In this document: piece after piece, positions 22,462 to 53,289 of the stretch
How the letters are laid out: each line of letters begins with the position of its first letter
Numbering within the stretch: the first letter of the stretch is position 1
NCBI GenBank assembly: GCA_965198115.1
Contig: OZ240241.1
Coordinates: 128,001-192,000 of the forward strand
Length of the DNA: 64,000 bases
DNA from: Candidatus Latescibacterota bacterium
GTDB lineage: Bacteria > Latescibacterota > UBA2968
Direction: 5' to 3'
Position numbers and translations under genes: made by a program
Notes under the pieces: generated by a model
Databases searched by the model: none
What the model was told of the DNA's origin: nothing
Seen by the model: the letters and a program-made list of their open reading frames with translations, nothing else

Positions 22462-23277
22462 CTATTGGGTTCCAAACTCGCCGTGGACGGGAACGGGTGC
22501 ATCGCCGCCACCGATGACGCTCTGGTCGAAGTCGACGAGCGCGCCCGTCATCAGTCCAGACTCGTCGGACGCAAGATAGGCAATTGCCCGGGCGGCTTCG
22601 TCGACTTTGATGAGCCGACCGAAAGGCCGGTCGGCTTCAGCCTCGTCGAGCCAGTCCTTGCCGTCGCTGTGAACCGTCCGTTGGATATGGTCTTCGCCGG
22701 GTGTATCCATCCACCCGAGCATCAGGCCGTTGACGCGGATGCGGTTCCGCACGACAGCGTAGGCGACGTTCTTCGTGAGGGTGGCGAGATCACCCTTCGA
22801 CGTCGAGTAGGGGGTGAGAAAAGGCTGACCTCCGTAGGCGCTGGTCGAGATGACGTTGACGATCGATCCCTCGACGGCCTGGTCGCGCATATGGTTGACG
22901 CAGGCTTGCATCAGCAGAAAGGGCGCGCGCAGATTGACGTCGATCAGGTTGTTCCATACGTCGAGCGTCGTGTCGTAGATCGTCCCGCGCGTTGTGAGGC
23001 CGGCGGCGTTCACGAGGATGTGAATCTGGCCGAACCGTTCGATCGAGTCGGATACCACCTGCCCACAGCTATCGGGATCGGCAAGGTCGGCCTGAACGAA
23101 AAAGGCATTGCAATCACCCTGGCACAGGTCGGTGGCGACGCGCTTTCCCCGGTCGGCGTCCCGTCCTGTGATGGTCACGCCGGATGCGCCGCGGTCGACA
23201 AACAGACGTGCCGTAGCCTCGCCAAGGCCTTGCGTACTGCCGGTGACGATCGCATGCTTTCCACCCAGTGTGCTCAT
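22462..23277 (-). CDS. Short-chain dehydrogenase/reductase
   Basis: TGSTQGLG, LVNAAG, YSTSK, NGLMLGW. ATG overlaps the thiI stop. Confidence 0.9.
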   Translation of the reverse strand: MSTLGGKHAIVTGSTQGLGEATARLFVDRGASGVTITGRDADRGKRVATDLCQGDCNAFFVQADLADPDSCGQVVSDSIERFGQIHILVNAAGLTTRGTIYDTTLDVWNNLIDVNLRAPFLLMQACVNHMRDQAVEGSIVNVISTSAYGGQPFLTPYSTSKGDLATLTKNVAYAVVRNRIRVNGLMLGWMDTPGEDHIQRTVHSDGKDWLDEAEADRPFGRLIKVDEAARAIAYLASDESGLMTGALVDFDQSVIGGGDAPVPVHGEFGTQ

Positions 23278-24443
23278 CGTTCGAATCGCTTCACTTCTGT
23301 GGATTTGAGGGTCTCTTCGATCAAGGGGTCCAGATCCATTCGTTCTTCGCAAGCGTGCACCCTGTCGATGTCGGCTCTGGTTTCCGGGTGTTTGGGGACG
23401 AAGACGGTACAGCAGTCTTCGTAGGGTTCGATCGATGTTTCGAAGGTGCCGATCGCGCGAGCCTGGTTAACGATTTCCTCTTTGTTGTCGCCGGCCAGGG
23501 GACGTAGAACAGGCAGGAGTGTGACTTCTTCGATGGCCCGCAGATTGGCCAGCGTCTGAGACGCGACCTGCCCGACGTTGTCGCCGGTCACGAGGGCCTG
23601 GGCGCCTTCCTGACGGGCGATCGCATCCGCGATGCGGAGCATACACCGTCGGTAGAGGAGGACTCGATAGCTTTCCATCCCGAACTGTACGATGTGGCGC
23701 TGGATTTCAACGAACGGTACGAGGAAGAGTCGCGATTTGTACTGGTAACGCGTGAGGATCTGGACAAGCTCCTCGGTGTTCCGCTGCGAATTGCGATTCG
23801 TGTAGGGCTGGCTGTGGAAGTGGACGAAGGAGAGTGTCACGCCTCGCTTCATGATCTTGTAGGACGCGACGGGCGAATCGATTCCGGATGAGATGAGGCT
23901 GACCGCGCGCTCGTTCGTACCGACCGGGAGGCCCCCGGGGCCCGATATTTTCTCACCGTAGACGAACGTGCCGTCGTGTGTGACCTCGAGGTAGCACGTA
24001 AGGTCGGGGTCGGCCATTCTCACTTCGGCGCCGGAAAGCTTTTGAACGTGGGCGCCGACGTCACGGTTGATTTCGTCGGAGTTCATTCCGAACGACTTGT
24101 CGGACCGACGTGTCACGAGCTTGAAGCTGTCGAAGCGCGACTTTTGCGCGACCGCCCAGGCGGCTTCGCGGAACGCCTCGATGCGGTTGGCGACGCGGTA
24201 GGCAGGCGAAAAGTTTGCGATGCCGAAGACGCCGGAAAGACGCTCGCGCACGACACCGTCGGGCGTGTCGGGGGTGAGCTCGACCAGCAGCCTACCCGAA
24301 ATGCGACGCACGGGACCGATCGGGACACCCTTCAGCGATCGTTGGATGTTCCGGATGAGCTGATTCTCGAACCGGCCGCGATTCCGGCCCTTCAGTCCGA
24401 TTTCGTGGTAGTGGATGAGGTAGAGATTTTGGGCCTCGCCCAT
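23274..24443 (-). CDS. thiI: tRNA 4-thiouridine synthase ThiI
   Basis: YHEIGLKGRNR, THUMP domain, GGLPVG, LISSGIDSPV, GQVASQT, EDCC. Confidence 0.95.
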   Translation of the reverse strand: MGEAQNLYLIHYHEIGLKGRNRGRFENQLIRNIQRSLKGVPIGPVRRISGRLLVELTPDTPDGVVRERLSGVFGIANFSPAYRVANRIEAFREAAWAVAQKSRFDSFKLVTRRSDKSFGMNSDEINRDVGAHVQKLSGAEVRMADPDLTCYLEVTHDGTFVYGEKISGPGGLPVGTNERAVSLISSGIDSPVASYKIMKRGVTLSFVHFHSQPYTNRNSQRNTEELVQILTRYQYKSRLFLVPFVEIQRHIVQFGMESYRVLLYRRCMLRIADAIARQEGAQALVTGDNVGQVASQTLANLRAIEEVTLLPVLRPLAGDNKEEIVNQARAIGTFETSIEPYEDCCTVFVPKHPETRADIDRVHACEERMDLDPLIEETLKSTEVKRFER

Positions 24444-24527
24444 CGCTTCCTCCGTGTGGGGTGGCGGTGGAGGAATATGGCCGAGGGCCCGGAGCGTGTC
24501 AAGAAACGGCCCTACCGAACGAGCGAT

Positions 24528-26117
24528 TTACTCAGTTTCAGAAGGTGTTCGATCGACGTCGCGGCGAAGCACGATCAGCGTCAGATCGTCGGCGCGGGGG
24601 GCAGTTCTGATGAACGATTCGACCGCCCTGTGAACCGTCTTGACGACCGGGGCGGAGCCATCGGCTTTCCAGGTGTTCTCTTCTTCTAGAAGCGATATGA
24701 AACGGGTTTCCTCGAGCATGTCACCGTTCGGACCCCGTGCCTCGATGACACCGTCCGAGTAGAAGACGAGCGCGTCACCGTCGGAGAGGGTAACCGTTTT
24801 CGATTCGTAGGTGCGACCCGCCCGGAGGACGGCGGGAATGCCGAGAGGCAGACCCGAGAGCTCGACCGGGATCGCCAATCGGGACTGTGCGCCGACCTGG
24901 ATGGGTGGGCAATGACCGGCATTGACCAACTCGACGCTCCCCGAAGGGATGTCCACGACGGCCACGCAACAGGTGATAAAGGTATCCGTGTCGATCTGCC
25001 CCTCGAGCGAGTCGTTCAGACCGGCGACGATGTCGATGGGATCGGTGCGATTGCGAATTTCGTATCGGAGCATCTCGTTGAATCTCAAGGCAGTGACGGC
25101 GGCTTCCATCGCCTTGCCCGACACATCGGCGATGACGATGGCGAATTTTTGCTGTTCTTCGTCGAGCCATTTGTAGGCGAAGTAGTCCCCTCCTACGTTG
25201 TTGGCGGGCACGAGCAGCCCGTCGACGCTGTAGCCGGTCAGGCCCGAGGGCGTATCGGGGAGGAGGTCCATCTGCATGTCGTGTGCGGTCTGAAGCTCGT
25301 CCCGCATTTCGCGATACTGGGCATCGTGCAAGCTTTCGTTTCGCTGCTCGGCGAGTAACGTCTGCCGGTAGGCGGAGCTCACCAGACTCATGCTGAAGGG
25401 GAATACGAGCAGGTCGACGAGGGCATCGATGTGGTAGTCTTCGGGCGTGTTCGACGCCAGTGACAACACGAACAGGGCGAGGACCAGAATGGCTGCGTGC
25501 TTGACGTGTCCGTAGCGGACGACCGTGTTCCGGCTTTCAACGTAGGCGTCAATGACGGGGAGGTGGCGATCGGCGACCAGGATGGGCAAATAGAAGCAGC
25601 GGAGCGTGAAGAAGAGAGCATAGCACCAAAGAAGGGCCAGTACGATGGCGGGTAGAATCACACTCCAGTCGTAGGACGGCTCCTGAAAACCTGGGAGGTA
25701 ACGGATGATGTCTCCGCTCAAATGTTCACGCAGAAATCCCTTGATGGGCACGATGTCCCGGGCCAACGGATCAGGCAGGACCTCGGTCGGGAGAATGCCA
25801 AAGGCGAACACCACGCTCAGCACGGCGAGAATAAGCCAGCCACCCGCACCCCACACGCTCAGGAATAGAAACCGAAGCGGGCGATTGGTAAGCGGGGACC
25901 AGCAAGTTCTGAGTGAAACCGACCCTCGATCCTGCCCTTCGAGACACATCAGCAGGATTCCGGTCACGAAGGCGGCCATAAAGATGGGCAGGACGATCGA
26001 GGCGAGGCCGGCGAGGAGCGACCCGATGACGAGATTGGGGAGATTGCCGGTCCAGCACGTGATGCTGTCGGACAGGCAGGTTCTGACCTTCAGGTGTGGG
26101 GCTGCGGGTTGTAGCAC
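24528..26117 (-). CDS. Multi-TM protein with C-terminal PP2C/SpoIIE (RsbU-like) phosphatase
   Basis: Hydrophobic N-half, then ELQTAHDMQ..LLP, VGGDYF, IADVSGK, NAGH, YSDGVIEA, DDLT. Confidence 0.9.
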   Translation of the reverse strand: MLQPAAPHLKVRTCLSDSITCWTGNLPNLVIGSLLAGLASIVLPIFMAAFVTGILLMCLEGQDRGSVSLRTCWSPLTNRPLRFLFLSVWGAGGWLILAVLSVVFAFGILPTEVLPDPLARDIVPIKGFLREHLSGDIIRYLPGFQEPSYDWSVILPAIVLALLWCYALFFTLRCFYLPILVADRHLPVIDAYVESRNTVVRYGHVKHAAILVLALFVLSLASNTPEDYHIDALVDLLVFPFSMSLVSSAYRQTLLAEQRNESLHDAQYREMRDELQTAHDMQMDLLPDTPSGLTGYSVDGLLVPANNVGGDYFAYKWLDEEQQKFAIVIADVSGKAMEAAVTALRFNEMLRYEIRNRTDPIDIVAGLNDSLEGQIDTDTFITCCVAVVDIPSGSVELVNAGHCPPIQVGAQSRLAIPVELSGLPLGIPAVLRAGRTYESKTVTLSDGDALVFYSDGVIEARGPNGDMLEETRFISLLEEENTWKADGSAPVVKTVHRAVESFIRTAPRADDLTLIVLRRDVDRTPSETE

Positions 26118-26156
26118 GGCGTCCCTCCCAGGCGCGGTGCGGAAGCGCGTGCCGGT

Positions 26157-27569
26157 TTATCGAGACGGCTTCTCTTTGTTGAGCCCGTGCTTGCGATAGA
26201 AGTGGCGGAACTGGTCGTAGGTCAACCCGAGCGCATCGGCTGCTTTCCTCTGATTCCATTCGGAAGATCGTAGGGCCCGGCGGAGCAGACTCAGTTCGAA
26301 CGCTTCGAGCTGGCTGTCGAATCCACCGTCGGATGACGGGCTGGAGTCGTCCACGACTTCGGGTGGAAGGTCGTCGGAGGTCAGGTCCTTTCCCGTGGCG
26401 ATGCAGGCCGCCCGTTCGGCAGCGAACTTGAGCTCCCTGATGTTCCCGGGCCAGTCGTAGTTCATGAGGGCGCGTTCGGCTTCCTTCGAGAATCGTCTAT
26501 CCTGAATGCCGGGAACTTCCTGAACGATTTCGCGGACGAAGTGCTCTGCGAGGGGGTGAATGTCCTCGCGGCGTTCCCTGAGTGGCGGAATCCGCAGGAC
26601 TTCGAAGCGGAGCCGATCATAGAGGTCCTGGCGGAAGCGGCCTTCGACGATCTCTCGTTCCAGGTTGGCGTTCGTCGCGGCGATCACCCGTACGTCCACT
26701 TTGAAGGGCGCCGCGCTGCCGACTCGCTGCACTTCCTGATACTCGATCGCACGCAGGATGTTCTGCTGGAATTCGGCGCTCGTGTTGCCGATTTCGTCGA
26801 GGAACAACGTACCACCGTCGGCCGCCTCGAACTTACCCGGCCGGGCCTCGCCGGCGCCCGTGAACGCGCCTTTTTCGTGACCAAAGAGCTCGCTTTCGAG
26901 CAGGTTGGGCGAGAGGGCGGCACAGTTGACTTTGACGAACGGGCGATCCTTCCGACCACCAGCATAGTGGATCGTCGCGGCGACGAGTTCCTTTCCGGTC
27001 CCCGGTTCGCCCAGGATGAGCACGGGTCGGGGAATCGAGGCGATGCGTTCCGCCTGTTGCAGCAGCTGCTGCATCACAGGACTCGTGCCGATCACTTGGT
27101 AGCGTTTGCCGAACTCGTCCCGATAGAATCGATTCTCGCGATCGAGGTCCTTGACCTCTTCGCGCAACTTTACGTTTTCATCGGCGACGGCGAGGACGCG
27201 TTCGAGCTTTTCGACGCTGAGCTCGAGCCGGTCCTCGATGTAGAAGTCCTTTTCGATAAAGTCGGCGGCCCCCAATCTCAGGGCGGTCACGGCAGTCTCG
27301 ACAGTGCCTTCGCCGGTGAGGATGATGACGGGCAAGTCGGGTATCTGCTCTTTGATGAGCCGAAGGATTTCGAGACCGTCAGGTTCCCCCTCGCCAAAAT
27401 CGAGATCCAGGATGGCCAGGTCGACGTTCTGCCCCGCTCCGCGCACGTGGTTCAGGGCTTCGACCCCGGTCGCGCACGCGTGAACATCTCGTCCCGTGGC
27501 GACGAGCGTTTCCTGCAGGGCGTCTCGGATTTCGGGCTGGTCGTCGGCAATGACGATGCGGGAGGGCAT
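26157..27569 (-). CDS. Sigma54 enhancer-binding response regulator: REC plus PspF-like AAA+ plus HTH
   Basis: REC motifs IADD, ILD, LTG, FIEK. AAA+ motifs GEPGTGKE, GAFTGA, FLDEI. PspF-like LRAIEY, DRLRFEV and HTH NQRKAADALGLTYDQFR. Confidence 0.92.
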   Translation of the reverse strand: MPSRIVIADDQPEIRDALQETLVATGRDVHACATGVEALNHVRGAGQNVDLAILDLDFGEGEPDGLEILRLIKEQIPDLPVIILTGEGTVETAVTALRLGAADFIEKDFYIEDRLELSVEKLERVLAVADENVKLREEVKDLDRENRFYRDEFGKRYQVIGTSPVMQQLLQQAERIASIPRPVLILGEPGTGKELVAATIHYAGGRKDRPFVKVNCAALSPNLLESELFGHEKGAFTGAGEARPGKFEAADGGTLFLDEIGNTSAEFQQNILRAIEYQEVQRVGSAAPFKVDVRVIAATNANLEREIVEGRFRQDLYDRLRFEVLRIPPLRERREDIHPLAEHFVREIVQEVPGIQDRRFSKEAERALMNYDWPGNIRELKFAAERAACIATGKDLTSDDLPPEVVDDSSPSSDGGFDSQLEAFELSLLRRALRSSEWNQRKAADALGLTYDQFRHFYRKHGLNKEKPSR

Positions 27570-27577
27570 GGGGTCTC

Positions 27578-29176
27578 TCAGGAGATGAATTCGTCGGCGA
27601 CCGGATCCCCGCCGGTCTCAGCACTGCTGCGTTGCAGGCGAAGCGCTTCCTTCTCGGAATGGACTTCGAAATCGATCGGGAGGTCGACGCGGAAGACTGT
27701 ACCACGACCCGCGCTGCTCTGGAAGCGGATCGTCCCTCGGTGGGCAGAGACGATGCGGCGACAGATACTGAGACCGTAGCCGTTTCCCTTTTCTCGTGTC
27801 GAAAAGCCGGGGTCGAATACCCTGGGCTGCACATCCTCGGGAATACCGGCTCCGCGATCTTCAACCTCTATGTAGACGGTCGTGCCCGCGGCGTCGTAGC
27901 CGACCTGGACGCGGACGGGTTCGTCATTTTGCGATGCGGCCAGCGCGTTCAACAGGAGGTTGGTGATGGTCTCCGCGATCATAGCCCCGTCGGCTTTGAC
28001 TTGCGGGATGTGTTCTTCGGCTTTGAAGGTGATGTTCGGGCCGCCCGATGCTTCGATCGTACGTCGTGTCAGGTCGACGACGTCGACGAGCACGGCGTTG
28101 ACGGTTTCCGTCTTCATGCTTCGCAGGTAGGTGACCCACTGATCGTAAACACTTTCCTGTTCGGCCAAGATCCGGTCGAACGGTTCGGACGAAACCGGAT
28201 CCAGCTTGCGGATCGCGCGTCGGAGCTTGTTGCCCGCGAGTCCCATCAGGTTCTTGATTCGGTGGCCGTGCGTGTAGAGGCTCTCGTAGACCTGGGCGCG
28301 ACCGAGTTCGATGAGCTCGAGCGAAAGGTGGGCGAGCACGGTTGAAGCTTTGATGCCGAATTCCTCGGAGATCGTCGCGTATTCCTGCTCCATTTCCGAA
28401 GGGCTCATATGGTCGAAGAGCAGCGCCGCGAGATTGCGGTAGGGTAACCCGTAGTCGGGCTGGAGCTGTATGGCGATCTTGAATTCGCCCAGGGCCGGAA
28501 TCGTCTGACCGGCCTGCATGAGAAGGACGCCGAGGTTGTTGTGACCCGGTGCGTAGAACGGGTCGGTTTCGAGTCCTCGGCGGTAGATGTCGACGGCTCG
28601 GCGCCGGCGCTCGGGAAAGTCGTCGAGGAAGCTGCCGAGAAGAAAGCAGACCCGATCGAGTCCATCGTAGACGACTCCGTCGTCGCAACGTGCCAGGATA
28701 TGCTCGAGCGCCTCGATAGCTCTCTGTCGGTCTTTTGAAGCCGGCGCTGCACCGTGGGCGTGGTGCAGGGCGAGCTGGAAGCTTGCGTCGAGGTGCTCGG
28801 GGTCGATTTCGATCGCGCGTTCGAAAGCCTCCCGCGCTTCCCCGGGATGGCCGACGTGTGCCTTCGAGAGGCCGACTTTGTAGTGGAGGTCGGCGACGTT
28901 AGGCTCCCGGGCAAGGGCCTTTGCGAACGTCTCGCTCGCCTTTGCGTATTCGCCCCGATTGTGATAGAGCACGCCCAGGTTGTGAAGCGACCGGACGTTT
29001 GTCGGGTCGAGCGCCGCCGCACGCTCATAGGCCCGCTCGGCCTCGTCGGCATCGGCGTCTCGGTAGGCCTGGTCGCCTAGGCTTCTGAGTCCGCGCGCCT
29101 CCTCGATTGTCGATTCGGGCAGGCTGTCGCCCAGCTCGAGTGACCCGTCGGTCGATGTAGTGCGCTTGCGATCCAC
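27578..29176 (-). CDS. Soluble TPR-repeat sensor histidine kinase
   Basis: Multiple TPRs (HNLGVLY, YKVGL, HNNLGVLL). H-box HRIKN, N-box NLLLNA, G1 EDRGAGI, G2 GNGYGL. No TM segment seen. Confidence 0.9.
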   Translation of the reverse strand: MDRKRTTSTDGSLELGDSLPESTIEEARGLRSLGDQAYRDADADEAERAYERAAALDPTNVRSLHNLGVLYHNRGEYAKASETFAKALAREPNVADLHYKVGLSKAHVGHPGEAREAFERAIEIDPEHLDASFQLALHHAHGAAPASKDRQRAIEALEHILARCDDGVVYDGLDRVCFLLGSFLDDFPERRRRAVDIYRRGLETDPFYAPGHNNLGVLLMQAGQTIPALGEFKIAIQLQPDYGLPYRNLAALLFDHMSPSEMEQEYATISEEFGIKASTVLAHLSLELIELGRAQVYESLYTHGHRIKNLMGLAGNKLRRAIRKLDPVSSEPFDRILAEQESVYDQWVTYLRSMKTETVNAVLVDVVDLTRRTIEASGGPNITFKAEEHIPQVKADGAMIAETITNLLLNALAASQNDEPVRVQVGYDAAGTTVYIEVEDRGAGIPEDVQPRVFDPGFSTREKGNGYGLSICRRIVSAHRGTIRFQSSAGRGTVFRVDLPIDFEVHSEKEALRLQRSSAETGGDPVADEFIS

Positions 29177-29178
29177 GC

Positions 29179-29760
29179 CTACGCCGTCTGGAGTCCCAAG
29201 CGTTGAAATTCGCGTTCGAGCTGGCGGCGTGCTCGGTTGAGCCAGGTCTTCACGGTCCCCATCGGGACCTCCAGCGTCTGAACGATTTCCTCGTAGGAAA
29301 AGTCCTTGACGTAGCGCAGCCAGATCGCTTTCCGGTAACGCTCGGGCAGTCGGTTGATGCCCTGGTGGACGAGTTCTCTACGCTCTCGTGTCTGAATGTC
29401 CACGTCCGGGCCGGCTTGCCTTGCGGCTTCGGACATCGCTGCTTTGGCGTATTCCACGTCTTCGAGCAGCGTGACCCAATTGCGGCGAACCCGTTCGGAG
29501 CGTTTGTGTGAGAGGCAGACGTTGATCGCAATGCGCGTGATCCACGTGCCGAAGGCGGATTCCCCGCGAAATGTGGGGAGGGCGTTGAACGCTCGGATGA
29601 AGGACTGTTGAATCAGGTCGTCGACCACATCGGGGTCGGATACGCGGCGTCGCACAACGGCAACGACGTTGGAATGGTAGGTCTCGTAGAGCTGTCGGTA
29701 GGCCGCGTCGCTCCCATGTAGCGCGTCCCGAATCAGCTGTTGTTCTTGATTGCGCGTCAC
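29179..29760 (-). CDS. ECF-family RNA polymerase sigma factor
   Basis: DDLIQQSFIRAF..L.TFRGESAFGTWITRIAIN (region 2) and SYEEIVQTLEVPMGTVKTWLNRAR (region 4). Confidence 0.93.
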   Translation of the reverse strand: MTRNQEQQLIRDALHGSDAAYRQLYETYHSNVVAVVRRRVSDPDVVDDLIQQSFIRAFNALPTFRGESAFGTWITRIAINVCLSHKRSERVRRNWVTLLEDVEYAKAAMSEAARQAGPDVDIQTRERRELVHQGINRLPERYRKAIWLRYVKDFSYEEIVQTLEVPMGTVKTWLNRARRQLEREFQRLGLQTA

Positions 29761-29771
29761 TTCGCATCCTT

Positions 29772-29957
29772 TCAGTAGGCTTCGTCTTGATCGCGGGTGA
29801 GGAAGCGGTAGCCGAGGTAGGTCACCGCGCCGGAAATCGCCAGCTTGACGAGCACGAAGGCCAGCGCGAATACGGACCCGATCAGAGGAAAGAGCGTGCC
29901 GAGGACCATGGATCCTCCGACGATGATCAGGATGATGCCAAGGAGTTTGAGCAACAT
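29772..29957 (-). CDS. Small two-TM membrane protein (PspG-like size and topology)
   Basis: 61 aa, almost entirely hydrophobic. GGAGGA RBS, tightly packed in the operon. Confidence 0.7.
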   Translation of the reverse strand: MLLKLLGIILIIVGGSMVLGTLFPLIGSVFALAFVLVKLAISGAVTYLGYRFLTRDQDEAY

Positions 29958-29969
29958 GGCGTCTTCCTC

Positions 29970-30287
29970 CTAAGACCCGGTTTCCGCGGGAGATTTCGTA
30001 CGTGATTCGAGTCGCGCCAGTCGTTCGTCGACAGAGATGATGATGTCCTGGACGTCCGAAAGCCGTTGCTCGACGCGGTCGAACCGTGCGTTTACTTCAT
30101 CGGGAACATCGGACGGTGGGGCGCTGTATCTGTACATTCTTGCGATCTTGATGAACACGATCGCAAGAAGGACGAGGATGACAATGGGGCCGGGGTTGTC
30201 GATTCCCCTGTCGAGGATGTGGACCGTCGTACCTATGGCGACGAAGAGGAAGGCAATGCTGCCAAAGGTCATGAACGAGCGTGGCAT
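29970..30287 (-). CDS. Small membrane protein with C-terminal coiled coil (PspB/PspC-like)
   Basis: Two TM helices, then VNARFDRVEQRLSDVQDIIISVDERLARLE. GGAG RBS. Confidence 0.75.
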   Translation of the reverse strand: MPRSFMTFGSIAFLFVAIGTTVHILDRGIDNPGPIVILVLLAIVFIKIARMYRYSAPPSDVPDEVNARFDRVEQRLSDVQDIIISVDERLARLESRTKSPAETGS

Positions 30288-30324
30288 GGTCTGGTTCTCC
30301 GTGAAGGAACGGTTGTCGTAAGCC

Positions 30325-30522
30325 CTATTGCCGTTTCAGTTTTTCGTCGATGGTGATCAGGATGTCCTGGACGTCGGTGATGCGGCGGTCGAGATCGTTC
30401 AGGCGCTCGTGGATCCGTTCTTCGACATCGCCCGGTACGGCCGCGTTGCCGCGACGTTCGACGTATTTATGGACGGCGGACGCCAGGACGATGAGTGATA
30501 TACCAGCGAAAATCTCGATCAT
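30325..30522 (-). CDS. Small single-TM coiled-coil protein (PspB-like), paralogous to the next gene
   Basis: TM then IHERLNDLDRRITDVQDILITIDEKLKR. GGAGG RBS. Confidence 0.75.
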   Translation of the reverse strand: MIEIFAGISLIVLASAVHKYVERRGNAAVPGDVEERIHERLNDLDRRITDVQDILITIDEKLKRQ

Positions 30523-30593
30523 AGTGCCCTCCCGGGACCCTTACCACGAAATAAGTGCTGCACTTTTCAAGGTAATGATCTTACGCTCGGAGT

Positions 30594-31802
30594 GTGGACG
30601 TCGAAACTCTCCGAACGAAGTATGAAGCCTTGGCTCCGGTGCTGACGGAACGCACGCGTCGTCTGTGGGCCGCCACGGAAGCCGAAGCGTTGGGTCACGG
30701 TGGGATCGCGATTGTGGCTCTGGCGACAGGAATGTCCAGAGAGCGGATCTTTCGTGGCATTCAGGAGTTGAGGTCGGACGAACCTTTGGACCCGGCTCGC
30801 ATCCGGCGTCCAGGCGGCGGTCGTAAGCGGAAGGCCGACACGGACCCGACGCTGTGGCAGGACCTGAATGATCTGGTCGAGCCAACGACTGCGGGGTCGC
30901 CTGACGACAATCCTCTGAGATGGACATCGAAGAGCACTCGCAAACTGGCCGCCGAGTTGCAAGCGATGGGGCATTCGGTGAGCCCCAGGATCGTTGCCAA
31001 TCTCCTGCACGAACACGATTACACGCTGCAGGCGAATCGGAAGACAAGGGAGGGATCTGCACACCCGGATCGGGACGCTCAGTTCGTTTACCTCGATGAT
31101 CGGATTAGCCAGCAGCAGCAGCAGGGCCTTCCCGTTATCTCGGTGGACACCAAGAAGAAAGAGTTGATCGGCGACTTCAAGAATCCTGGCCGAGAATGGC
31201 GACCCAAGGGAGACCCGGAGCGTGTGAAGGTACACGATTTCATAGTGCCTGCTCAGGGCAAGGCGATCCCTTATGGAGTGTATGATCTGAGCCGTGATGA
31301 AGGCTGGGTAAGTGTCGGTATCGATCACGACACGGCCAGCTTCGCCGTGAATGCGATCCGAAGTTGGTGGAAGAACATGGGACGGCCCGCCTACGGCACT
31401 TCGACGCATCTGCTAATCACGGCGGACGCAGGCGGCAGCAACGGCGCCAAGACGCGGCTGTGGAAGTGGGAGCTGCAGCGCTTTGCGAATCGCACTGGCC
31501 TGACGATCACCGTATGCCACTACCCTCCTGGCACTAGTAAGTGGAACAAGATCGAACATCGCCTGTTCTCCTTCATCGCTATGAACTGGCGAGGCAAGCC
31601 CCTGGTCAGCCTGGCTGCAACCGTGAATCTCATTGCCGGAACGACCACTCAAGCCGGTCTCCGAGTACGCTCCGAGATCGACAAGCGACCCTACCCTAAC
31701 GGGGTCAAGGTGACCGATGAACAGATGACCCAAATCGATCTCACTCCGCACGATTTCCACGGCGACTGGAACTACACGATCCGGCCAATGGCTCAACATT
31801 GA
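30594..31802 (+). CDS. ISAzo13-family transposase
   Basis: RIRRPGGGRK, LRWTSKS, HPDRDAQF, ISVDTKKKE, TADAGGSN, HYPPGTSKWNKIEHRLF, FHGDWNY. Confidence 0.95.
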   Translation: MDVETLRTKYEALAPVLTERTRRLWAATEAEALGHGGIAIVALATGMSRERIFRGIQELRSDEPLDPARIRRPGGGRKRKADTDPTLWQDLNDLVEPTTAGSPDDNPLRWTSKSTRKLAAELQAMGHSVSPRIVANLLHEHDYTLQANRKTREGSAHPDRDAQFVYLDDRISQQQQQGLPVISVDTKKKELIGDFKNPGREWRPKGDPERVKVHDFIVPAQGKAIPYGVYDLSRDEGWVSVGIDHDTASFAVNAIRSWWKNMGRPAYGTSTHLLITADAGGSNGAKTRLWKWELQRFANRTGLTITVCHYPPGTSKWNKIEHRLFSFIAMNWRGKPLVSLAATVNLIAGTTTQAGLRVRSEIDKRPYPNGVKVTDEQMTQIDLTPHDFHGDWNYTIRPMAQH

Positions 31803-31820
31803 GATCGACCGTTTATTTAT

Positions 31821-33240
31821 GGCTATATCCGGATCTCTCAACGAGATGAAGTGGGTGAAGGTGCCGTGGTTCCTGGCATGGGGGCGCGGTTAGCGTGTGC
31901 GGAACCTCTTCGGAATCTGCTCAGGGATGTTTATGTCTCCGACGGTAAGGAAGATCATATCGTTGAATGCGTCGAGTGTGCGGAATCCGCTGGCTCGGTT
32001 CTTGACGATTTGGACGATTCGGTTGAGGCCTTCGGCGATGGCGTTGGTAAGACGCGTGTTCACGAATGCGAGGACGCCGAAGAAGTGCTGTCGCAGGGTC
32101 CTGACGAACTTTCGCAGGGGTTCAAGTCGACTTCTGAGTGCGGACGTCGTCCAGCATTTCAGGAAGCGTTCGGCAGCCCAGGGCGCTTTGTATTCCCAGA
32201 ACTGCTCGAACTCGTCCTTGAGTCTCCAGGCTCTATAGATTCGGTAGTTCGCCTTCTCCAGTGCTTTGAGTGTCCGAGTATCCCCTCTGGAGCGTGTCGC
32301 TGAGTGCCGGTAGAGGAGCCATCGGAGGCCCTTCATGGCTTTGCGCTCATCCGGGGCAGCTTTACGCCACTGGTCCTTACGGACCTCGTCAACGGCGGCA
32401 TTGAGAGCCTTGACGATGTGAAAGCGATCGAGGACCAGCTTGGCATTCGGACAGTGTTCCTGGATGGCTCCGATGTAAGCTTCGCTCATGTCGCAGCAGG
32501 CCCACTCGATCTTGGATCTCCGGTAGGGACTGAGAGCCTCTGTGAAGAACCGATCGATCGTTTTACGCGCCCTGCCGCGGCCAACCCACACCACGCAGGA
32601 GCGGTCCAGATCGTAAACGAGCGTGGCGTACCTGTGACGCTTGGCGTAGGAGATCTCGTCGATCCCGATGGTTTTGAGCCCTCGGATACGATGACCTTCA
32701 CGAAGCCGCGTGATGGATCGGTGAAGGAGATCCGACAGCGTCGAGGCAGAGATGCGCAGTAACTCGGACGCCGCCTTCTGCGTCATGGTCTGGCAGTAGC
32801 GCAGCATGGCATACTCGAAGCGATACGTCACCCGAGAGAACCGCTCCGCCCACGGAATCTCCTCGACCACACGACCGTGGGTAGGACACCGAATCTCCCG
32901 AGGATGGTAGAGAAGCCAGACCCTCCACCCGCACACCGGAATGTCACGCCACCGACGCGGATGGGGCATTGTGCGGACGATTTTACCTCGACGGCCGCAC
33001 TCCGGACAACAACAACCATTCTTATGTGGCTTTACGGCGATGACGAAGCAGCTTCTCCCCTCAAACCACCAGCTGACAACACGGAACCCCTTGAATCTCA
33101 GCAGTTTCGATAGTAATCTGCTCCCGGTCATAGGTCGCACCCCCTTCGCTTTGATTGTCCTACACACACAACCAAGCGTAGGGAACGATCTATGACCTTG
33201 TCATTCTATAGTTTCACCGTTGAGAAACCCGGATAGAGCC
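31821..33240 (-). mobile_element. ISL3-family element copy 1 (1420 bp)
   Basis: Ends GGCTATATCCGG / CCGGATAGAGCC. 8-bp TSD TTATTTAT at 31813-31820 and 33241-33248. Confidence 0.95.
31890..33167 (-). CDS. ISL3 transposase
   Basis: Zinc-finger CPECG...CPTHG, IGIDE, CCDMS, LDRFH, TNAIAEGLN. Confidence 0.95.
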   Translation of the reverse strand: MCRTIKAKGVRPMTGSRLLSKLLRFKGFRVVSWWFEGRSCFVIAVKPHKNGCCCPECGRRGKIVRTMPHPRRWRDIPVCGWRVWLLYHPREIRCPTHGRVVEEIPWAERFSRVTYRFEYAMLRYCQTMTQKAASELLRISASTLSDLLHRSITRLREGHRIRGLKTIGIDEISYAKRHRYATLVYDLDRSCVVWVGRGRARKTIDRFFTEALSPYRRSKIEWACCDMSEAYIGAIQEHCPNAKLVLDRFHIVKALNAAVDEVRKDQWRKAAPDERKAMKGLRWLLYRHSATRSRGDTRTLKALEKANYRIYRAWRLKDEFEQFWEYKAPWAAERFLKCWTTSALRSRLEPLRKFVRTLRQHFFGVLAFVNTRLTNAIAEGLNRIVQIVKNRASGFRTLDAFNDMIFLTVGDINIPEQIPKRFRTR

Positions 33241-33257
33241 TTATTTATTCCGAACCC

Positions 33258-33902
33258 TTAGAGCTCGTCGACCGGCTTTGCGTGGGACTTCTCATCTGCC
33301 CGTTCGATTTCGTGGAAGTGGTAAACCATCAAACCGGATTCAGACACCCGCACCTCGGCATACCCCTGGACGGCGAGGTCTCGGAGCATCGCCTCGGTCT
33401 TGTCTACGGTCAGACGTAGGTCGGTGGCGGCTTCGATGACCGACAGGCTCCCACCCCGTTCGCGTGCAAGTCTCAGGAGACGGTTTTGATCCTTTTCGGC
33501 CCCCCTGCGGTCGGCCGATTTCTGGATCCTTTGGCCGGTCCAGTAGATACATTGCGCGAACACCAGAAGACAGAGACCCACCGTGATCGCATCGTTTTTG
33601 CCCTTGCTGACGCCAGCGATGGCCGCGATCAGTCCACTCAACGCCATCAGAGCCGCGAAACCCTTGGCTGAGTAGGCGAACATGTAGCGCATAAGGCAGC
33701 TCCCGTCCGTCGCGAAATCGGACACACGATTGGGCACGTCTTTGAGCTTGATGCTCGCGGAACGGATGTCGTGCGACGTCTTGGATTCGTTCCACTCCCC
33801 CTTCGCCCAGTGCCACTCACGCCGGATGTTCGTTTCCGCATCCTTCACGGCGTCGGTGACTTCCGAGATGATCTCTTCGACGAAGTTCGCGTGCTTAGGC
33901 AT
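33258..33902 (-). CDS. Two-TM membrane protein with C-terminal winged-helix-like domain
   Basis: Two hydrophobic helices, then LLRLARERGGSLSVIEAATDLRLTVDKTEAMLRDLAVQGYAEVRVSESGLMVYHF. Overlaps the pspA stop. Confidence 0.8.
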   Translation of the reverse strand: MPKHANFVEEIISEVTDAVKDAETNIRREWHWAKGEWNESKTSHDIRSASIKLKDVPNRVSDFATDGSCLMRYMFAYSAKGFAALMALSGLIAAIAGVSKGKNDAITVGLCLLVFAQCIYWTGQRIQKSADRRGAEKDQNRLLRLARERGGSLSVIEAATDLRLTVDKTEAMLRDLAVQGYAEVRVSESGLMVYHFHEIERADEKSHAKPVDEL

Positions 33903-34572
33903 CGTCCTTCCCCATCCTCTTCTTCAGGGCTTCGAGCTCATCCTCGACGGACTGACGACGCTCGAGTTTTCCGAACTGATCGTCTAGCGATGCGTCAGGG
34001 CCTGCCAGGTCTTGGTGGGCGTCGGCTTCGGCCTCTTCGGTTTCGACGCTGTTGCGGAAACGTTCGAAACTCGAGAAGGCATCGTCGCCTACGCCGGCCA
34101 GTCCCTTCGCGATTTGTTTGCGCGCCTGGGCGGCACGACGACGGGCAATCAGGGCGCCCTGTCGTGTTCTGGCTTCGTCCAGTTTCGCCTTCAATTGCTG
34201 CATCTGGTGTTTAAGCTGTGCCGACGTCTTCTGGCTTTCTTGTAGGGCGGCCTGGAGGTCTTCGAGCGCTTCTTGCAATGCGGCCTTTCGCTCGAGGGCG
34301 CGACGCGCCAGCTCGTCCTCTCCGGATTCGACGGCGAGTTCGGCCTTATTCTGCCAGGCTTCGATCTGATCTTCCTGCGCCAAGTACTGGCGCTCGAGGC
34401 GCTTCTCGTTGGCGACGGCCGTGCCGACGGAAGCGGTAGCCTTGTTGACTGCCTCTTCCATTTCCAGGATCATCTGGCGAATCATTTTCTCCGGATCTTC
34501 GGCCTTCGTCAGAAGATCGTTGATGTTGGCCTTGACGATGTCGGCCATTCGTGAAAAGATGCCCTTTGCCAT
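33895..34572 (-). CDS. pspA: Phage shock protein A (PspA/IM30 family)
   Basis: GIFSRMADIVKANINDLLTKAEDPEKMIRQMILEMEE, EDELARRALERK, C-terminal VEDELEALK. AAAGGAG RBS. Confidence 0.95.
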   Translation of the reverse strand: MAKGIFSRMADIVKANINDLLTKAEDPEKMIRQMILEMEEAVNKATASVGTAVANEKRLERQYLAQEDQIEAWQNKAELAVESGEDELARRALERKAALQEALEDLQAALQESQKTSAQLKHQMQQLKAKLDEARTRQGALIARRRAAQARKQIAKGLAGVGDDAFSSFERFRNSVETEEAEADAHQDLAGPDASLDDQFGKLERRQSVEDELEALKKRMGKDDA

Positions 34573-34637
34573 ACCGTTCTCCTTTCAACTCCTGCGTATT
34601 GCCAGCGTGGGGTGCCTTGATTCGCACCGCTTACGAT

Positions 34638-34654
34638 GGCAAGGGGCGTGCCGG
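34638..34654 (-). promoter_or_regulatory. Sigma54 -24/-12 promoter of the psp operon
   Basis: Minus strand reads CCGGCACGCCCCTTGCC, a GG-N10-GC match to TGGCACGN4TTGC, about 66 nt upstream of the pspA ATG. Confidence 0.8.
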
Positions 34655-34740
34655 TATCGGGCTGATGCCTGAATGCGAACCCATATGGTTGTTTTTAATG
34701 GCATTATACGTTCCAGGCTCTCCAGATCAATCTGTCCGAA

Positions 34741-34779
34741 TCTGGTGTATTCCACCAGACTCCAGGTGCTCTCGACCAA
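34741..34779. promoter_or_regulatory. Candidate PspF-type upstream activator sequences
   Basis: Perfect palindrome TCTGGTG-TATTC-CACCAGA (34741-34759) and a weaker copy CAGGTG-CTCTC-GACCAA (34763-34779), about 90-130 bp upstream of the -24 element. Confidence 0.65.
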
Positions 34780-34888
34780 CTCTCTCGTAAGATACGCTGA
34801 CCGACGCGGGAATAGAAGCCGGTTGTCCGCGCTTCGCAAAGTTGATAAAATCAGACGATCCCCTCTTTAGTCCCCGCTCGCCCAACGA

Positions 34889-35992
34889 ATGTTACTCTAC
34901 CGCACTGCCCTTATCGCGTTGTGCACGTTGCTCCTGGGTGCACCCGCCACCGGTCTTTCTCCGACCTACGAGGTCCGGAGGGGCGACTCGCTGTGGGAAA
35001 TCGCCAGGCGCTTTCGCACCTCGGTGGACCGGATCCGGAGAATCAACGGCCTGAACTCCTCCCGTATCTACCCTGGGCAGCGGCTCCGGATCGGAACGAG
35101 AATCCGCGAATTCCTGCTGCCCAACGGACCCTACTATTACATCCGCCCAAGTCGTGACGTTCAGGATACCAGAGCGTATGCCGAGGGATCCAGCGGTACC
35201 CCAAGGAAGGATTACGCGCGTGCACGCAGCCTGTTGGAGGCCCACTACACGGAATTAGAGGTTCGCTTTCAAAATTTGAAGGGTCGGACACAGCCCCTGC
35301 GTGGGTGGCGGATCGTCCTGGACCCAGGCCACGGTGGGCGGGACCCCGGGGCGATCGTCTCCAATCGTGACGGACGGAATCAGGACGTTCACGTCGTGGA
35401 AGACGAGTATGTCTACGACATTGCCGTTCGCATCCTCGAGAGATTGACGCTCTACGGGGCGGCGGTCGAATTGACGGTCATCAGCCCGAACCATCTGAGG
35501 AGGGACAACACACCGGCTTCACATACTTTCGTGAACGAACAGAACGAGGTCTACAACGATGCGAGGACAAACCGATCGAATGATTCGTCGGTCCGGCCCG
35601 GATCGGACAACATCGAACGGCGTGTCCGCATCGCGAATGCCTTTTTTGGTGGGCGCTCCAAGACGCTGTTTCTTTCCCTCCACGCCGACAACAGTCCCGG
35701 ACGACCAAAAGGACCGCTCGTGATGTTTCTGCAGCGCGGCACGCACGTGGATCGACGGTCGAAGCGGCTTGCCGAGGTCATGCGTCGGACGCTCGATTCC
35801 CCGACCGTGCCCTCTCAGATCGGCGGTCGAAACCTGGCCGTCCTCCGTGACAATCGTGCTCGAGCCGAAGTTCTGGTGGAGATCCGGAACGTGTCGTTTG
35901 TGGGAGATGCCTGGGCTCTGCGTTTTCACGAGACGCGTGACGAAGACGCGGACCGCATCGTGCGGGGGGTGTTGGACTACGTGGAAGGGTGA
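34889..35992 (+). CDS. LysM-containing N-acetylmuramoyl-L-alanine amidase (Amidase_3)
   Basis: Signal peptide, LysM YEVRRGDSLWEIARRF...IYPGQRL, then IVLDPGHGGRDPGA, LSLHAD, VLVE. Confidence 0.92.
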   Translation: MLLYRTALIALCTLLLGAPATGLSPTYEVRRGDSLWEIARRFRTSVDRIRRINGLNSSRIYPGQRLRIGTRIREFLLPNGPYYYIRPSRDVQDTRAYAEGSSGTPRKDYARARSLLEAHYTELEVRFQNLKGRTQPLRGWRIVLDPGHGGRDPGAIVSNRDGRNQDVHVVEDEYVYDIAVRILERLTLYGAAVELTVISPNHLRRDNTPASHTFVNEQNEVYNDARTNRSNDSSVRPGSDNIERRVRIANAFFGGRSKTLFLSLHADNSPGRPKGPLVMFLQRGTHVDRRSKRLAEVMRRTLDSPTVPSQIGGRNLAVLRDNRARAEVLVEIRNVSFVGDAWALRFHETRDEDADRIVRGVLDYVEG

Positions 35993-46129: not shown

Positions 46130-47549
46130 GGCTATATCCGGATCTCTCAACGAGATGAAGTGGATGAAGGTGCCGTGGTTCCTGGCATGGGGGCGCGGTT
46201 AGAGTGTGCGGAACCTCTTCGGAATCTGCTCAGGGATGTTTATGTCTCCGACGGTAAGGAAGATCATATCGTTGAATGCGTCGAGTGTGCGGAATCCGCT
46301 GGCTCGGTTCTTGACGATTTGGACGATTCGGTTGAGGCCTTCGGCGATGGCGTTGGTAAGACGCGTGTTCACGAATGCGAGGACGCCGAAGAAGTGCTGT
46401 CGCAGGGTCCTGACGAACTTTCGCAGGGGTTCAAGTCGACTTCTGAGTGCGGACGTCGTCCAGCATTTCAGGAAGCGTTCGGCAGCCCAGGGCGCTTTGT
46501 ATTCCCAGAACTGCTCGAACTCGTCCTTGAGTCTCCAGGCTCTATAGATTCGGTAGTTCGCCTTCTCCAGTGCTTTGAGTGTCCGAGTATCCCCTCTGGA
46601 GCGTGTCGCTGAGTGCCGGTAGAGGAGCCATCGGAGGCCCTTCATGGCTTTGCGCTCATCCGGGGCAGCTTTACGCCACTGGTCCTTACGGACCTCGTCA
46701 ACGGCGGCATTGAGAGCCTTGACGATGTGAAAGCGATCGAGGACCAGCTTGGCATTCGGACAGTGTTCCTGGATGGCTCCGATGTAAGCTTCGCTCATGT
46801 CGCAGCAGGCCCACTCGATCTTGGATCTCCGGTAGGGACTGAGAGCCTCTGTGAAGAACCGATCGATCGTTTTACGCGCCCTGCCGCGGCCAACCCACAC
46901 CACGCAGGAGCGGTCCAGATCGTAAACGAGCGTGGCGTACCTGTGACGCTTGGCGTAGGAGATCTCGTCGATCCCGATGGTTTTGAGCCCTCGGATACGA
47001 TGACCTTCACGAAGCCGCGTGATGGATCGGTGAAGGAGATCCGACAGCGTCGAGGCAGAGATGCGCAGTAACTCGGACGCCGCCTTCTGCGTCATGGTCT
47101 GGCAGTAGCGCAGCATGGCATACTCGAAGCGATACGTCACCCGAGAGAACCGCTCCGCCCACGGAATCTCCTCGACCACACGACCGTGGGTAGGACACCG
47201 AATCTCCCGAGGATGGTAGAGAAGCCAGACCCTCCACCCGCACACCGGAATGTCACGCCACCGACGCGGATGGGGCATTGTGCGGACGATTTTACCTCGA
47301 CGGCCGCACTCCGGACAACAACAACCATTCTTATGTGGCTTTACGGCGATGACGAAGCAGCTTCTCCCCCCAAACCACCAGCTGACAACACGGAACCCCT
47401 TGAATCTCAGCAGTTTCGATAGTAATCTGCTCCCGGTCATAGGTCGCACCCCCTTCGCTTTGATTGTCCTACACACACAACCAAGCGTAGGGAACGATCT
47501 ATGACCTTGTCATTCTATAGTTTCACCGTTGAGAAACCCGGATAGAGCC
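46130..47549 (-). mobile_element. ISL3 copy 2 (1420 bp, transposase 46199-47476)
   Basis: Near-identical to copy 1 with the same termini. No matching TSD. Confidence 0.95.
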
Positions 47550-51867: not shown

Positions 51868-53289
51868 GGCTATATCCGGATCTCTCAACGAGATGAAGTG
51901 GGTGAAGGTGCCGTGGTTCCTGGCATGGGGGCGCGGTTAGAGTGTGCGGAACCTCTTCGGAATCTGCTCAGGGATGTTTATGTCTCCGACGGTAAGGAAG
52001 ATCATATCGTTGAATGCGTCGAGTGTGCGGAATCCGCTGGCTCGGTTCTTGACGATTTGGACGATTCGGTTGAGGCCTTCGGCGATGGCGTTGGTAAGAC
52101 GCGTGTTCACGAATGCGAGGACGCCGAAGAAGTGCTGTCGCAGGGTCCTGACGAACTTTCGCAGGGGTTCAAGTCGACTTCTGAGTGCGGACGTCGTCCA
52201 GCATTTCAGGAAGCGTTCGGCAGCCCAGGGCGCTTTGTATTCCCAGAACTGCTCGAACTCGTCCTTGAGTCTCCAGGCTCTATAGATTCGGTAGTTCGCC
52301 TTCTCCAGTGCTTTGAGTGTCCGAGTATCCCCTCTGGAGCGTGTCGCTGAGTGCCGGTAGAGGAGCCATCGGAGGCCCTTCATGGCTTTGCGCTCATCCG
52401 GGGCAGCTTCACGCCACTGGTCCTTACGGACCTCGTCAACGGCGGCATTGAGAGCCTTGACGATGTGAAAGCGATCGAGGACCAGCTTGGCATTCGGACA
52501 GTGTTCCTGGATGGCTCCGATGTAAGCTTCGCTCATGTCGCAGCAGGCCCACTCGATCTTGGATCTCTGGTAGGGACTGAGAGCCTCTGTGAAGAACCGA
52601 TCGATCGTTTTACGCGCCCTGCCGCGGCCAACCCACACCACGCAGGAGCGGTCCAGATCGTAAACGAGCGTGGCGTACCTGTGACGCTTGGCGTAGGAGA
52701 TCTCGTCGATCCCGATGGTTTTGAGCCCTCGGATACGATGACCTTCACGAAGCCGCGTGATGGATCGGTGAAGGAGATCCGACAGCGTCGAGGCAGAGAT
52801 GCGCAGTAACTCGGACGCCGCCTTCTGCGTCATGGTCTGGCAGTAGCGCAGCATGGCATACTCGAAGCGATACGTCACCCGAGAGAACCGCTCCGCCCAC
52901 GGAATCTCCTCGACCACACGACCGTGGGTAGGACACCGAATCTCCCGAGGATGGTAGAGAAGCCAGACCCTCCACCCGCACACCGGAATGTCACGCCACC
53001 GACGCGGATGGGGCATTGTGCGGACGATTTTACCTCGACGGCCGCACTCTGGACAACAACAACCATTCTTATGTGGCTTTACGGCGATGACGAAGCAGCT
53101 TCTCCCCCCAAACCACCAGCTGACAACACGGAACCCCTTGAATCTCAGCAGTTTCGATAGTAATCTGCTCCCGGTCATAGGTCGCACCCCCCCTTCGCTT
53201 TGATTGTCCTACACACACAACCAAGCGTAGGGAACGATCTATGACCTTGTCATTCTATAGTTTCACCGTTGAGAAACCCGGATAGAGCC
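51868..53289 (-). mobile_element. ISL3 copy 4 (1422 bp, transposase 51937-53187)
   Basis: Same termini. 8-bp TSD TTTTTTAT at 51860-51867 and 53290-53297. Confidence 0.95.

Follow-up and report, generated by a model that had tools for sequence, protein, structure and literature searches.

A phage-shock operon of Candidatus Latescibacterota combining a soluble TPR kinase with a receiver-bearing relative of PspF

The window analysed here is a stretch of 64,000 nt from a Candidatus Latescibacterota bacterium (GCA_965198115.1, contig OZ240241.1, positions 128,001-192,000 of the forward strand). It contains a phage shock protein (Psp) operon in which pspA is accompanied by genes for a soluble tetratricopeptide repeat (TPR) histidine kinase and for a sigma-54 activator that is related to PspF and carries a receiver domain, and we consider it a real, conserved and apparently new variant of the Psp response. 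On balance we favour a reading in which the kinase sets the phosphorylation of the PspF relative, which would then switch on pspA together with its own genes. At the sequence level this reading draws on the promoter, the operator pair, the gene linkage, the intact phosphoacceptors and the loss of W56, a tryptophan of canonical PspF. Across Ca. Latescibacterota the operon keeps a conserved core of pspA, a two-transmembrane protein with a predicted C-terminal winged helix-turn-helix (TM-wHTH), genes for small membrane proteins, the TPR kinase and the activator; an extracytoplasmic function (ECF) sigma factor and a PP2C phosphatase are add-ons. Papers are cited by PMC number for the parts that were available, and coordinates with the prefix C1 refer to the genome of the window.

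The activator and its relation to PspF

The activator (470 aa, 26157..27569, minus strand) has a receiver, an AAA+ domain and a Fis-type helix-turn-helix (HTH). Among 96 NCBIfam families the PspF family TIGR02974 was its best match, with 360.2 bits under a cut-off of 443.55, and it was the most PspF-like activator in the window genome, none of whose activators reached this cut-off. The motifs LRAIEY, DRLRFEV and GLTYDQFR, which an earlier reading made by a model from the sequence only had taken as PspF-like, were all found. The sigma-54 AAA+ motifs were intact (GTGKE, GAFTGA, DE259 and R319) and conserved in 72/72 homologues, with F236 replaced by Y in 11. The HTH aligned with that of PspF, and its recognition helix was nearly identical to that of E. 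coli PspF. Canonical PspF has no regulatory domain, whereas an N-terminal receiver was recognised here (PF00072, E 9e-21). The structure model gave a full receiver fold followed by a 46-residue linker helix, D55 was kept in 70 of 72 homologues (with a gap in the other two rows) and K107 in all 72, so the receiver is as intact as the sequence-only reading had taken it to be.

The YLW patch (Y51, L52 and W56) is the primary PspA site on PspF, and W56 is a main binding determinant (PMC3791423). This patch reads Y-A-K in the window activator. As had been noted earlier, a lysine (K207) aligns with W56 of E. coli PspF. W56 was found in 23/23 canonical PspF proteins, 0/13 orthologues of the activator and 0/32 family members, and in the 13 orthologues L52 was changed to G/A and W56 to K/R/A without exception.

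In an AAA+ tree of 103 rows, the receiver-bearing forms and canonical PspF fell into one clade (SH-aLRT 99). After 41 of the 103 rows were omitted (long branches, fragments and redundant rows), the resulting 62-row tree supported the joint clade with 100/99 and canonical PspF alone with 100/100, the activator lying outside the latter. The joint clade stood apart from NtrC, ZraR, AtoC, GlrR, NorR, FhlA and TyrR. The PspF-clade membership proposed earlier therefore holds for the joint clade and not for the receiver-less one. The receiver-bearing forms were monophyletic in 2/400 bootstrap trees, and the tree constrained to their monophyly scored 3.75 log units higher (approximately unbiased, AU, test p 0.57), so that paraphyly is not claimed. 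In the receiver tree, 28 family receivers grouped against 53 generic ones (97/85, with long branches present), and because they form one group, a single old receiver fusion is pointed to. The idea that the operon was rewired from canonical PspF is not supported as stated, given the position outside the canonical clade, the single group of receivers and the AU p of 0.57. Receiver loss in canonical PspF would fit at least as well, so the activator may be a sister or ancestral-type form of canonical PspF. Taken together, it is predicted to act like PspF at the promoter, yet it departs from the PspF family in four tested respects.

A subclade with support of 100/99 (P0141, P0146, P0148, P0149, P0151-P0153) had decaying receivers, the K107 position being lost in most members and D55 in some. 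Its one examined locus (L229) was without pspA, and this subclade is possibly a stage of receiver loss.

Promoter and tandem operator of pspA

A sigma-54 -24/-12 promoter motif (GG[CT]A[CT]-N5-TTGC; 34637..34654, minus strand) lies upstream of pspA, which bears out at the sequence level the sigma-54 promoter placed before the operon by the earlier reading. The motif was present in 46/46 distinct pspA upstream regions, 65-140 nt above pspA, and by chance the strict form of the motif should occur only 0.002 times in 330 nt of the window genome, where an rpoN gene was also found. About 90-150 nt above the motif there was a tandem palindrome, TGGYG-N5-CRCCA, with copies mostly 21-22 nt apart. In the window the weak copy (34764..34778, minus strand) is 21 nt from the strong one (34743..34757, minus strand; 19.6 bits), and the latter, which lies some 105 nt upstream of the GG in the sigma-54 motif, is the predicted activator site. 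An AT-rich stretch (34683..34730, minus strand), AT-rich in relatives too and possibly a site for integration host factor, overlaps a sigma-70-like match, TTGATC-16-TATAAT at 34730-34703, which is a consensus match only.

The operator was recovered across families of the phylum, here called f1, f2 and f4. A matrix trained on f4 beat at least 99/100 shuffles in 25/25 f1/f2 regions, one trained on f1/f2 did so in 16/17 f4 regions, and the window pair scored above 100/100 shuffles under a matrix built from a different family. When 26 kb of E. coli was scanned, the pair in the pspF-pspA intergenic region was the top match under either matrix, and we take these palindromes to be the two known upstream activating sequences (UASs) of PspF. 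At motif level, a PspF-type HTH is thus joined to a putative tandem operator at a predicted sigma-54 pspA promoter.

The same arrangement of tandem operator, AT-rich stretch and sigma-54 motif was found before a second pspA (C1:3242752-3243414, minus strand), which is followed by a 62-aa hydrophobic gene. Among the 14 homologues found of this second pspA, the operator pair was present in 13/13 scanned and the sigma-54 motif in 12/13. Two further pspA paralogues of the window genome (L102, L103) were without operator and promoter. Near-identical pspA paralogues were seen at C1:611821-612522 and 7253345-7254046, each behind a gene of about 130 aa and without operator, and a pspA fragment of 35 codons at C1:71913. 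A genome-wide pair match near C1:71614 was rejected as unrelated sequence with no sigma-54 motif. A combined operator and promoter IUPAC pattern was too strict (matches in 2/41 genomes) and uninformative.

Two other sites may be mentioned. The top-ranked operator-plus-sigma-54 site, at C1:3219061 (plus strand), is followed by a short gene for a receiver domain, and a sigma-54 motif pointing the opposite way lies at 3218735. The third-ranked site genome-wide, an operator pair (17.9) with a sigma-54 motif, stands before a STAS-like anti-anti-sigma gene (C1:7071116-7071508, minus strand). A STAS-like gene also occurs inside the operon at locus L003, and this may link the PP2C phosphatase to partner switching.

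The TPR kinase

The kinase (532 aa, 27578..29176, minus strand) is composed of TPRs and a HATPase_c domain. It has no transmembrane segment (hydropathy maximum 1.16), and 70 of 72 kinase rows contained no hydrophobic segment. Its AlphaFold2 model (mean pLDDT 81.5) showed a TPR superhelix, a helical hairpin of the dimerization and histidine phosphotransfer (DHp) type and the HATPase_c domain, and Foldseek matched it to TPR superhelices and to the cores of HK853 and ZraS. The N, G1, F and G2 boxes were all recognised; H305, N309, N406, N410 and the G boxes were invariant in 71/71 homologues. Position 402 was E/D in all 71, whereas NtrB, ZraS and AtoS have Q there. The N-terminal TPRs differed in length between homologues.

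Distribution across Latescibacterota and a second lineage

Matches to the activator at 66-86% were found in 17 named records, 16 of them titled Ca. Latescibacterota. An orthologue was single-copy in 36/40 relatives and in 95/153 genomes of the phylum, confined to three families of one class: 27/30 in f1, 21/22 in f2, 46/69 in f4 and 0/31 in eleven other families, plus the window genome. The genes pspA, TM-wHTH, kinase and activator were co-oriented and in the same order in 19/20 f1/f2 loci (the miss is at a contig end) and in 19/20 f4 loci, and none of 63 loci of generic activators contained pspA. In the f4 locus L122 a second pspA lies directly downstream of the activator, the place that pspA has in the Kofleriaceae-type loci described below.

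A profile search also found more remote activators that have a receiver and share these signatures, one cluster with Kofleriaceae members and another with Polyangiaceae. The Kofleriaceae-type (Myxococcota) set consisted of 80 metagenome loci, close kin at 66-93% to the query, with the order kinase, activator, pspA, small gene and ECF gene. Where the loci were long enough, pspA followed the activator in 62/64, the kinase preceded it in 63/66 and the ECF gene came after it in 31/34. Of 301 genomes in the phylum to which a Bradymonadales record belongs, five had a kinase-activator-pspA cluster in the same order. PspA was the only Psp component linked to the kinase-activator pair in both phyla.

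The large family searches scored 5-13 candidates per genome, and their negatives mean not found rather than absent. In this sense the activator family was not found in 201 genomes of the phylum of the Acidobacteriota record L048 or in 32 genomes of the phylum of record L087. Borderline matches in KSB1 (2/121) turned out to be generic NtrC-type activators, and a plasmid search returned only PspF and generic activators.

PspA and the membrane partners

PspA (225 aa, 33895..34572, minus strand) is a PspA/IM30 protein (PF04012, 167.3 bits against a cut-off of 33.9). It shows 39% identity to E. coli PspA and 57-90% across 45 relatives, and it scored 186.5 bits for proteobacterial PspA (TIGR02977), under the equivalog cut-off of 242.95.

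The TM-wHTH protein (214 aa, 33258..33902, minus strand) has two hydrophobic segments and belongs to no named family. It gave a weak DUF742 match (E 0.007); its Atlas neighbours were hypothetical, with the nearest named ones, MarR/IclR, at no more than 0.8. Small membrane protein 1 (65 aa, 30325..30522, minus strand) had no NCBIfam match and ends in a coiled-coil motif of the RLxDxQD type, a tail shared by the small two-transmembrane protein 2 (105 aa, 29970..30287, minus strand). Protein 2 also matched the PspC family TIGR02978 weakly over residues 49-92 (E 0.0056, far under the cut-off). Small protein 3 (61 aa, 29772..29957, minus strand) was recognised as hydrophobic by hydropathy and has homologues in relatives; an open reading frame (ORF) resembling it, as judged by eye, follows the second pspA of the window genome.

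The tail motif was present in 51 ORFs across 32/48 loci, with 1-4 copies each. Among 20 small proteins, two matched TIGR02978 (E 0.006-0.04; 14-17 bits against a cut-off of 104) and none matched the PspB family model. The tails may be PspB/PspC-tail-like. In relatives, the operons also contained, as seen by eye, extra small proteins and genes resembling STAS, NfeD and flotillin.

Proposed signal flow and its alternatives

Binding of the activator to the tandem palindrome, and sigma-54 transcription from there of the operon and of the unlinked second pspA, can be expected with considerable assurance. It is also likely that the activity of the activator would depend on phosphorylation of D55 set by the adjacent kinase. 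The input is a more tentative part, to which we give a little under an even chance: soluble PspA would be the ligand of the TPR region and lock the kinase in phosphatase mode, and this would end once PspA is recruited to the membrane by damage there and by the small PspB/C-like proteins. PspA is favoured because it is the sole partner linked in both phyla, and because the loss of W56 removes the classical feedback, which something must replace. Since kinase and activator are encoded inside the operon, its induction would reinforce itself, and the PspA made in the process would turn it off again. The ECF sigma factor and the PP2C phosphatase would be optional second-tier outputs.

Within the same phospho-controlled circuit, the TPRs could read the small-protein tail motif, TM-wHTH or a cytoplasmic signal rather than PspA. 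The tail motif is strongly conserved, in one to four copies per locus, as a TPR peptide ligand might be, TM-wHTH is encoded in 38/40 Latescibacterota loci, and the TPR length varies among kinase homologues. We nevertheless think this unlikely, since the Kofleriaceae-type pair keeps the kinase core and pspA, whereas TM-wHTH was not found in 5/5 genomes of that type and no ORF with the tail motif was found in loci L144-L228. The tail motif moreover weakly resembles the PspC tail, which in E. coli contacts PspA.

Several observations weigh against the reading that we favour, and the first concerns the chemistry of the kinase. The H-box was H-R/Q-x-K-N in 71/71 homologues, with R (50) or Q (21) and never an acid after H305, and the H-E/D-x-x-T/N box of the HisKA type was not seen, so autokinase activity is less certain. 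In HisKA kinases the acid at H+1 is required for autokinase and the Asn/Thr at H+4 for phosphatase activity (PMC3510030). With the H+1 acid missing and a phosphatase-type H+4 Asn invariant, and with no match to Pfam HisKA, HisKA_2 or HWE_HK at E 0.01, the TPR protein might be a phosphatase or a NifL-like anti-activator, the activator being phosphorylated by another donor or kept inactive through direct binding. This appears quite improbable, as H305 and the ATP-binding boxes are invariant and the acid at 402 is kept in 71/71, as a compensating base would be. HWE kinases, too, are active with an arginine H-box. We infer an active kinase in which E402 may serve as the base in place of the missing H+1 acid.

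Other such observations concern the contact with PspA. Position 51 was Y/F in 12/13 orthologues, and the PspA residues aligned with E37 and W71, which have a functional role in E. coli PspA, were retained. A dual control, in which phosphorylation is combined with direct inhibition of the activator by PspA at a surface away from W56, would fit the state of position 51, the near-invariant helix of PspA residues 38-60 and the second PspA site reported on PspF (PMC6003685). The replacement of L52 and W56 in 13/13 orthologues and the presence of Y/F at position 51 in 19/48 unrelated activators speak against it, and we hold such dual control to be very unlikely.

The promoters of the second lineage point in the same adverse direction. 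Upstream of the Kofleriaceae-type cluster no sigma-54 motif or operator pair was found (21 loci scanned, two stray motif matches), neither element was seen in 12 upstream regions that were read, and neither stood before the strongest pspA of these genomes. Autoregulation and direct control of pspA are thus not universal. In this lineage the operator and the sigma-54 motif were found before a conserved unlinked ECF gene (L252-L256) in 5/5 genomes, each beating 200/200 shuffles, with a palindrome spacing of about 20 and operator and motif only about 75 nt apart. At three of the four strongest Kofleriaceae-type pspA genes there was an element, TGCAAC-N16-CGTA, that resembles ECF promoters, and these sites support an ECF tier in that lineage. 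The operator before an ECF gene rather than before pspA would also suit a kinase-activator pair that merely adjoins pspA and regulates other genes, such as the ECF sigma factor. This is hardly credible, because in Latescibacterota the operator pair and the sigma-54 motif stand before pspA in nearly every tested genome, and before the second pspA as well.

Three further points count on the same side. The Kofleriaceae-type loci and many of the Latescibacterota loci are close kin and not independent. G499, the sixth family member in the phylum of the Bradymonadales record, has a decayed receiver, and its 18-kb locus contains no kinase or pspA. With the Latescibacterota matrix, only 6/11 other canonical pspF promoters beat at least 197/200 shuffles.

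Beyond the favoured circuit, a rather doubtful proposal is that the operon preserves the original form of sigma-54 control over the phage-shock response, with PspA, a bacterial ESCRT-III protein, as ligand of a soluble TPR kinase of undescribed catalytic type (H-R/Q box, an N-box acid serving as base) and with canonical PspF descending from such an activator by losing the receiver and gaining the W56 patch. PspA would then have moved from the kinase to the activator, with the operator unchanged.

Accessory genes and surroundings of the operon

All nine co-oriented genes listed by the sequence-only reading were present on the minus strand (24528-34572), and their domain assignments were borne out. 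Gene order is conserved for the core of pspA, TM-wHTH, small genes, kinase and activator, and not for the ECF sigma factor and the PP2C phosphatase, which are lineage-specific. The ECF sigma factor (193 aa, 29179..29760, minus strand; Sigma70_r2 and r4_2) is an order-specific accessory gene, present in 20/20 f1/f2 loci and 0/20 f4 loci. In five f4 genomes the best ECF match elsewhere reached only 30-37%, so none is close. No ECF-type promoter pattern was seen in window positions 24000-35000. The second tier proposed earlier through this gene is accordingly lacking in f4, and the tier supported in the Kofleriaceae-type lineage runs through a different gene. The membrane PP2C/SpoIIE phosphatase (529 aa, 24528..26117, minus strand; PF07228, 143 bits) has its acidic motifs and is accessory to family f1, being present in 13/13 f1, 0/7 f2 and 0/20 f4 loci; the named record L035 was also without it.

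The operon is flanked by a divergent LysM amidase gene above pspA (34889-35992, plus strand) and by thiI on its lower side (23274-24443, minus strand), for which a separate sigma-70-like site was seen; both genes are kept as neighbours in most f1/f2 loci and not in f4.

The tight packing described earlier was not found throughout. Eight intergenic gaps from pspA to thiI range from -8 to 84 nt, and the remaining one, from TM-wHTH to the first small gene, is 2735 nt and is filled by a nested insertion (30541..33260) at the TM-wHTH stop codon. It consists of an ISAzo13-family element (transposase 30594-31802, plus strand), lacking 7 nt at one end relative to other copies, which carries an ISL3 element (31821-33240; transposase 31890-33167, minus strand) with terminal inverted repeats and an 8-bp target duplication. 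Transposase matches were NF033519 (574 bits) and NF033550 (303 bits), both above cut-off. Near-full copies numbered 225 for ISL3 and 74 for ISAzo13 genome-wide, and in 11 nested composites ISL3 sits at the identical site in the ISAzo13 end. Since the nearest relative has only a 17-nt gap at this position, the insertion is recent. The sequence-only reading had overlooked it, as it had the unusual H-box of the kinase. The insertion leaves every reading frame whole, and no terminator-like site was found within it; in the window genome it may weaken read-through from the pspA promoter.

The junctions were compared with assembled contigs, in which most shared words stem from insertion sequences. 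In run X1, possibly the source sample, one contig extends 33 letters across the left junction and a second one 29 letters across the right, with zero mismatches. No joint skipping the insertion was listed among the contigs, which is in itself uninformative. Two low-depth contigs of one sponge metatranscriptome fall on pspA and say nothing about expression or habitat. Two further ISL3 copies lie in the window (46199-47476 and 51937-53187), and the genome measures 8.4 Mb against 5.6 Mb in a congener, alongside a large recent expansion of insertion sequences. At C1:2870558-2872531 there is a same-strand array of 20 tRNA genes, as integrated elements typically carry.

Comparison with known systems

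No description of a receiver-bearing PspF with a TPR kinase was found in the literature covered, outside which lay subscription journals, the web application of PMC11237479 and the OpARA data of PMC9239133. PMC11237479 lists PspF variants and two-component contexts with membrane kinases and does not analyse PspF in detail, and the passages available, with one supplement file, contained no match to the kinase and receiver-PspF architecture. Kinases adjoining pspA in Actinobacteriota are reported in PMC9239133, whose main text, as far as available, has no mention of Latescibacterota. The available parts of PMC3041696 and PMC4641369 treat only PspF without receiver.

Among sigma-54 activators, PspF is the model case of one that has no regulatory domain and is controlled in trans by PspA. 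A receiver-bearing sister family with the same operator, pspA linkage in two phyla and its own soluble kinase offers a direct comparison for how this control came about. It also suggests a possible route for a cytoplasmic kinase to read membrane damage, namely through the assembly state of the ESCRT-III-like PspA. The operator motif predicts a regulon, the combination of an H-R/Q box and an N-box acid hints at kinase chemistry of interest, and as every component is an ordinary protein, assays with E. coli sigma-54 RNA polymerase are feasible.

Likeness to the Psp system of E. coli and Yersinia extends to the PspA effector, the sigma-54 promoter with a pair of similarly shaped operators above it, the joint AAA+ clade (100/99), the near-identical recognition helix and the small membrane partners; E. 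coli pspA has two PspF UASs (PMC3709507). The Latescibacterota system differs in that the activator has a receiver, is without L52 and W56, lies in the operon instead of divergently and is paired with a soluble kinase, and in that the small partners match PspB/PspC weakly. In LiaFSR/liaIH of Bacillus subtilis a PspA homologue is likewise under a two-component system of the same cluster (PMC11237479), but its kinase LiaS is membrane-bound and its regulator LiaR consists of receiver and HTH, in place of the soluble TPR kinase and the sigma-54 AAA+ activator.

With NtrB/NtrC and the NtrC1/ZraR systems, the operon shares the receiver-AAA+-HTH architecture and an HK853/ZraS-like kinase core, whereas both the AAA+ domain and the receiver of the activator group apart from NtrC, ZraR, AtoC and GlrR, and the kinase is without the H+1 acid. 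HWE/HisKA2 kinases are often soluble, as here, and also have arginine after the histidine, in the HWE motif H-R-x-K-N. In the N-box of these kinases the first Asn is replaced by Glu (PMC12148442), whereas both N406 and N410 are kept in 71/71 homologues here and the acid lies four residues earlier.

For the predicted ECF tier, the closest parallel is Pseudomonas syringae, where HrpL is an ECF sigma factor. In its HrpRS-sigma-54-hrpL cascade an enhancer-binding protein acts at a sigma-54 promoter (PMC3105312), but HrpRS are controlled by binding of HrpV/HrpG and not by a kinase, and they run type III secretion.

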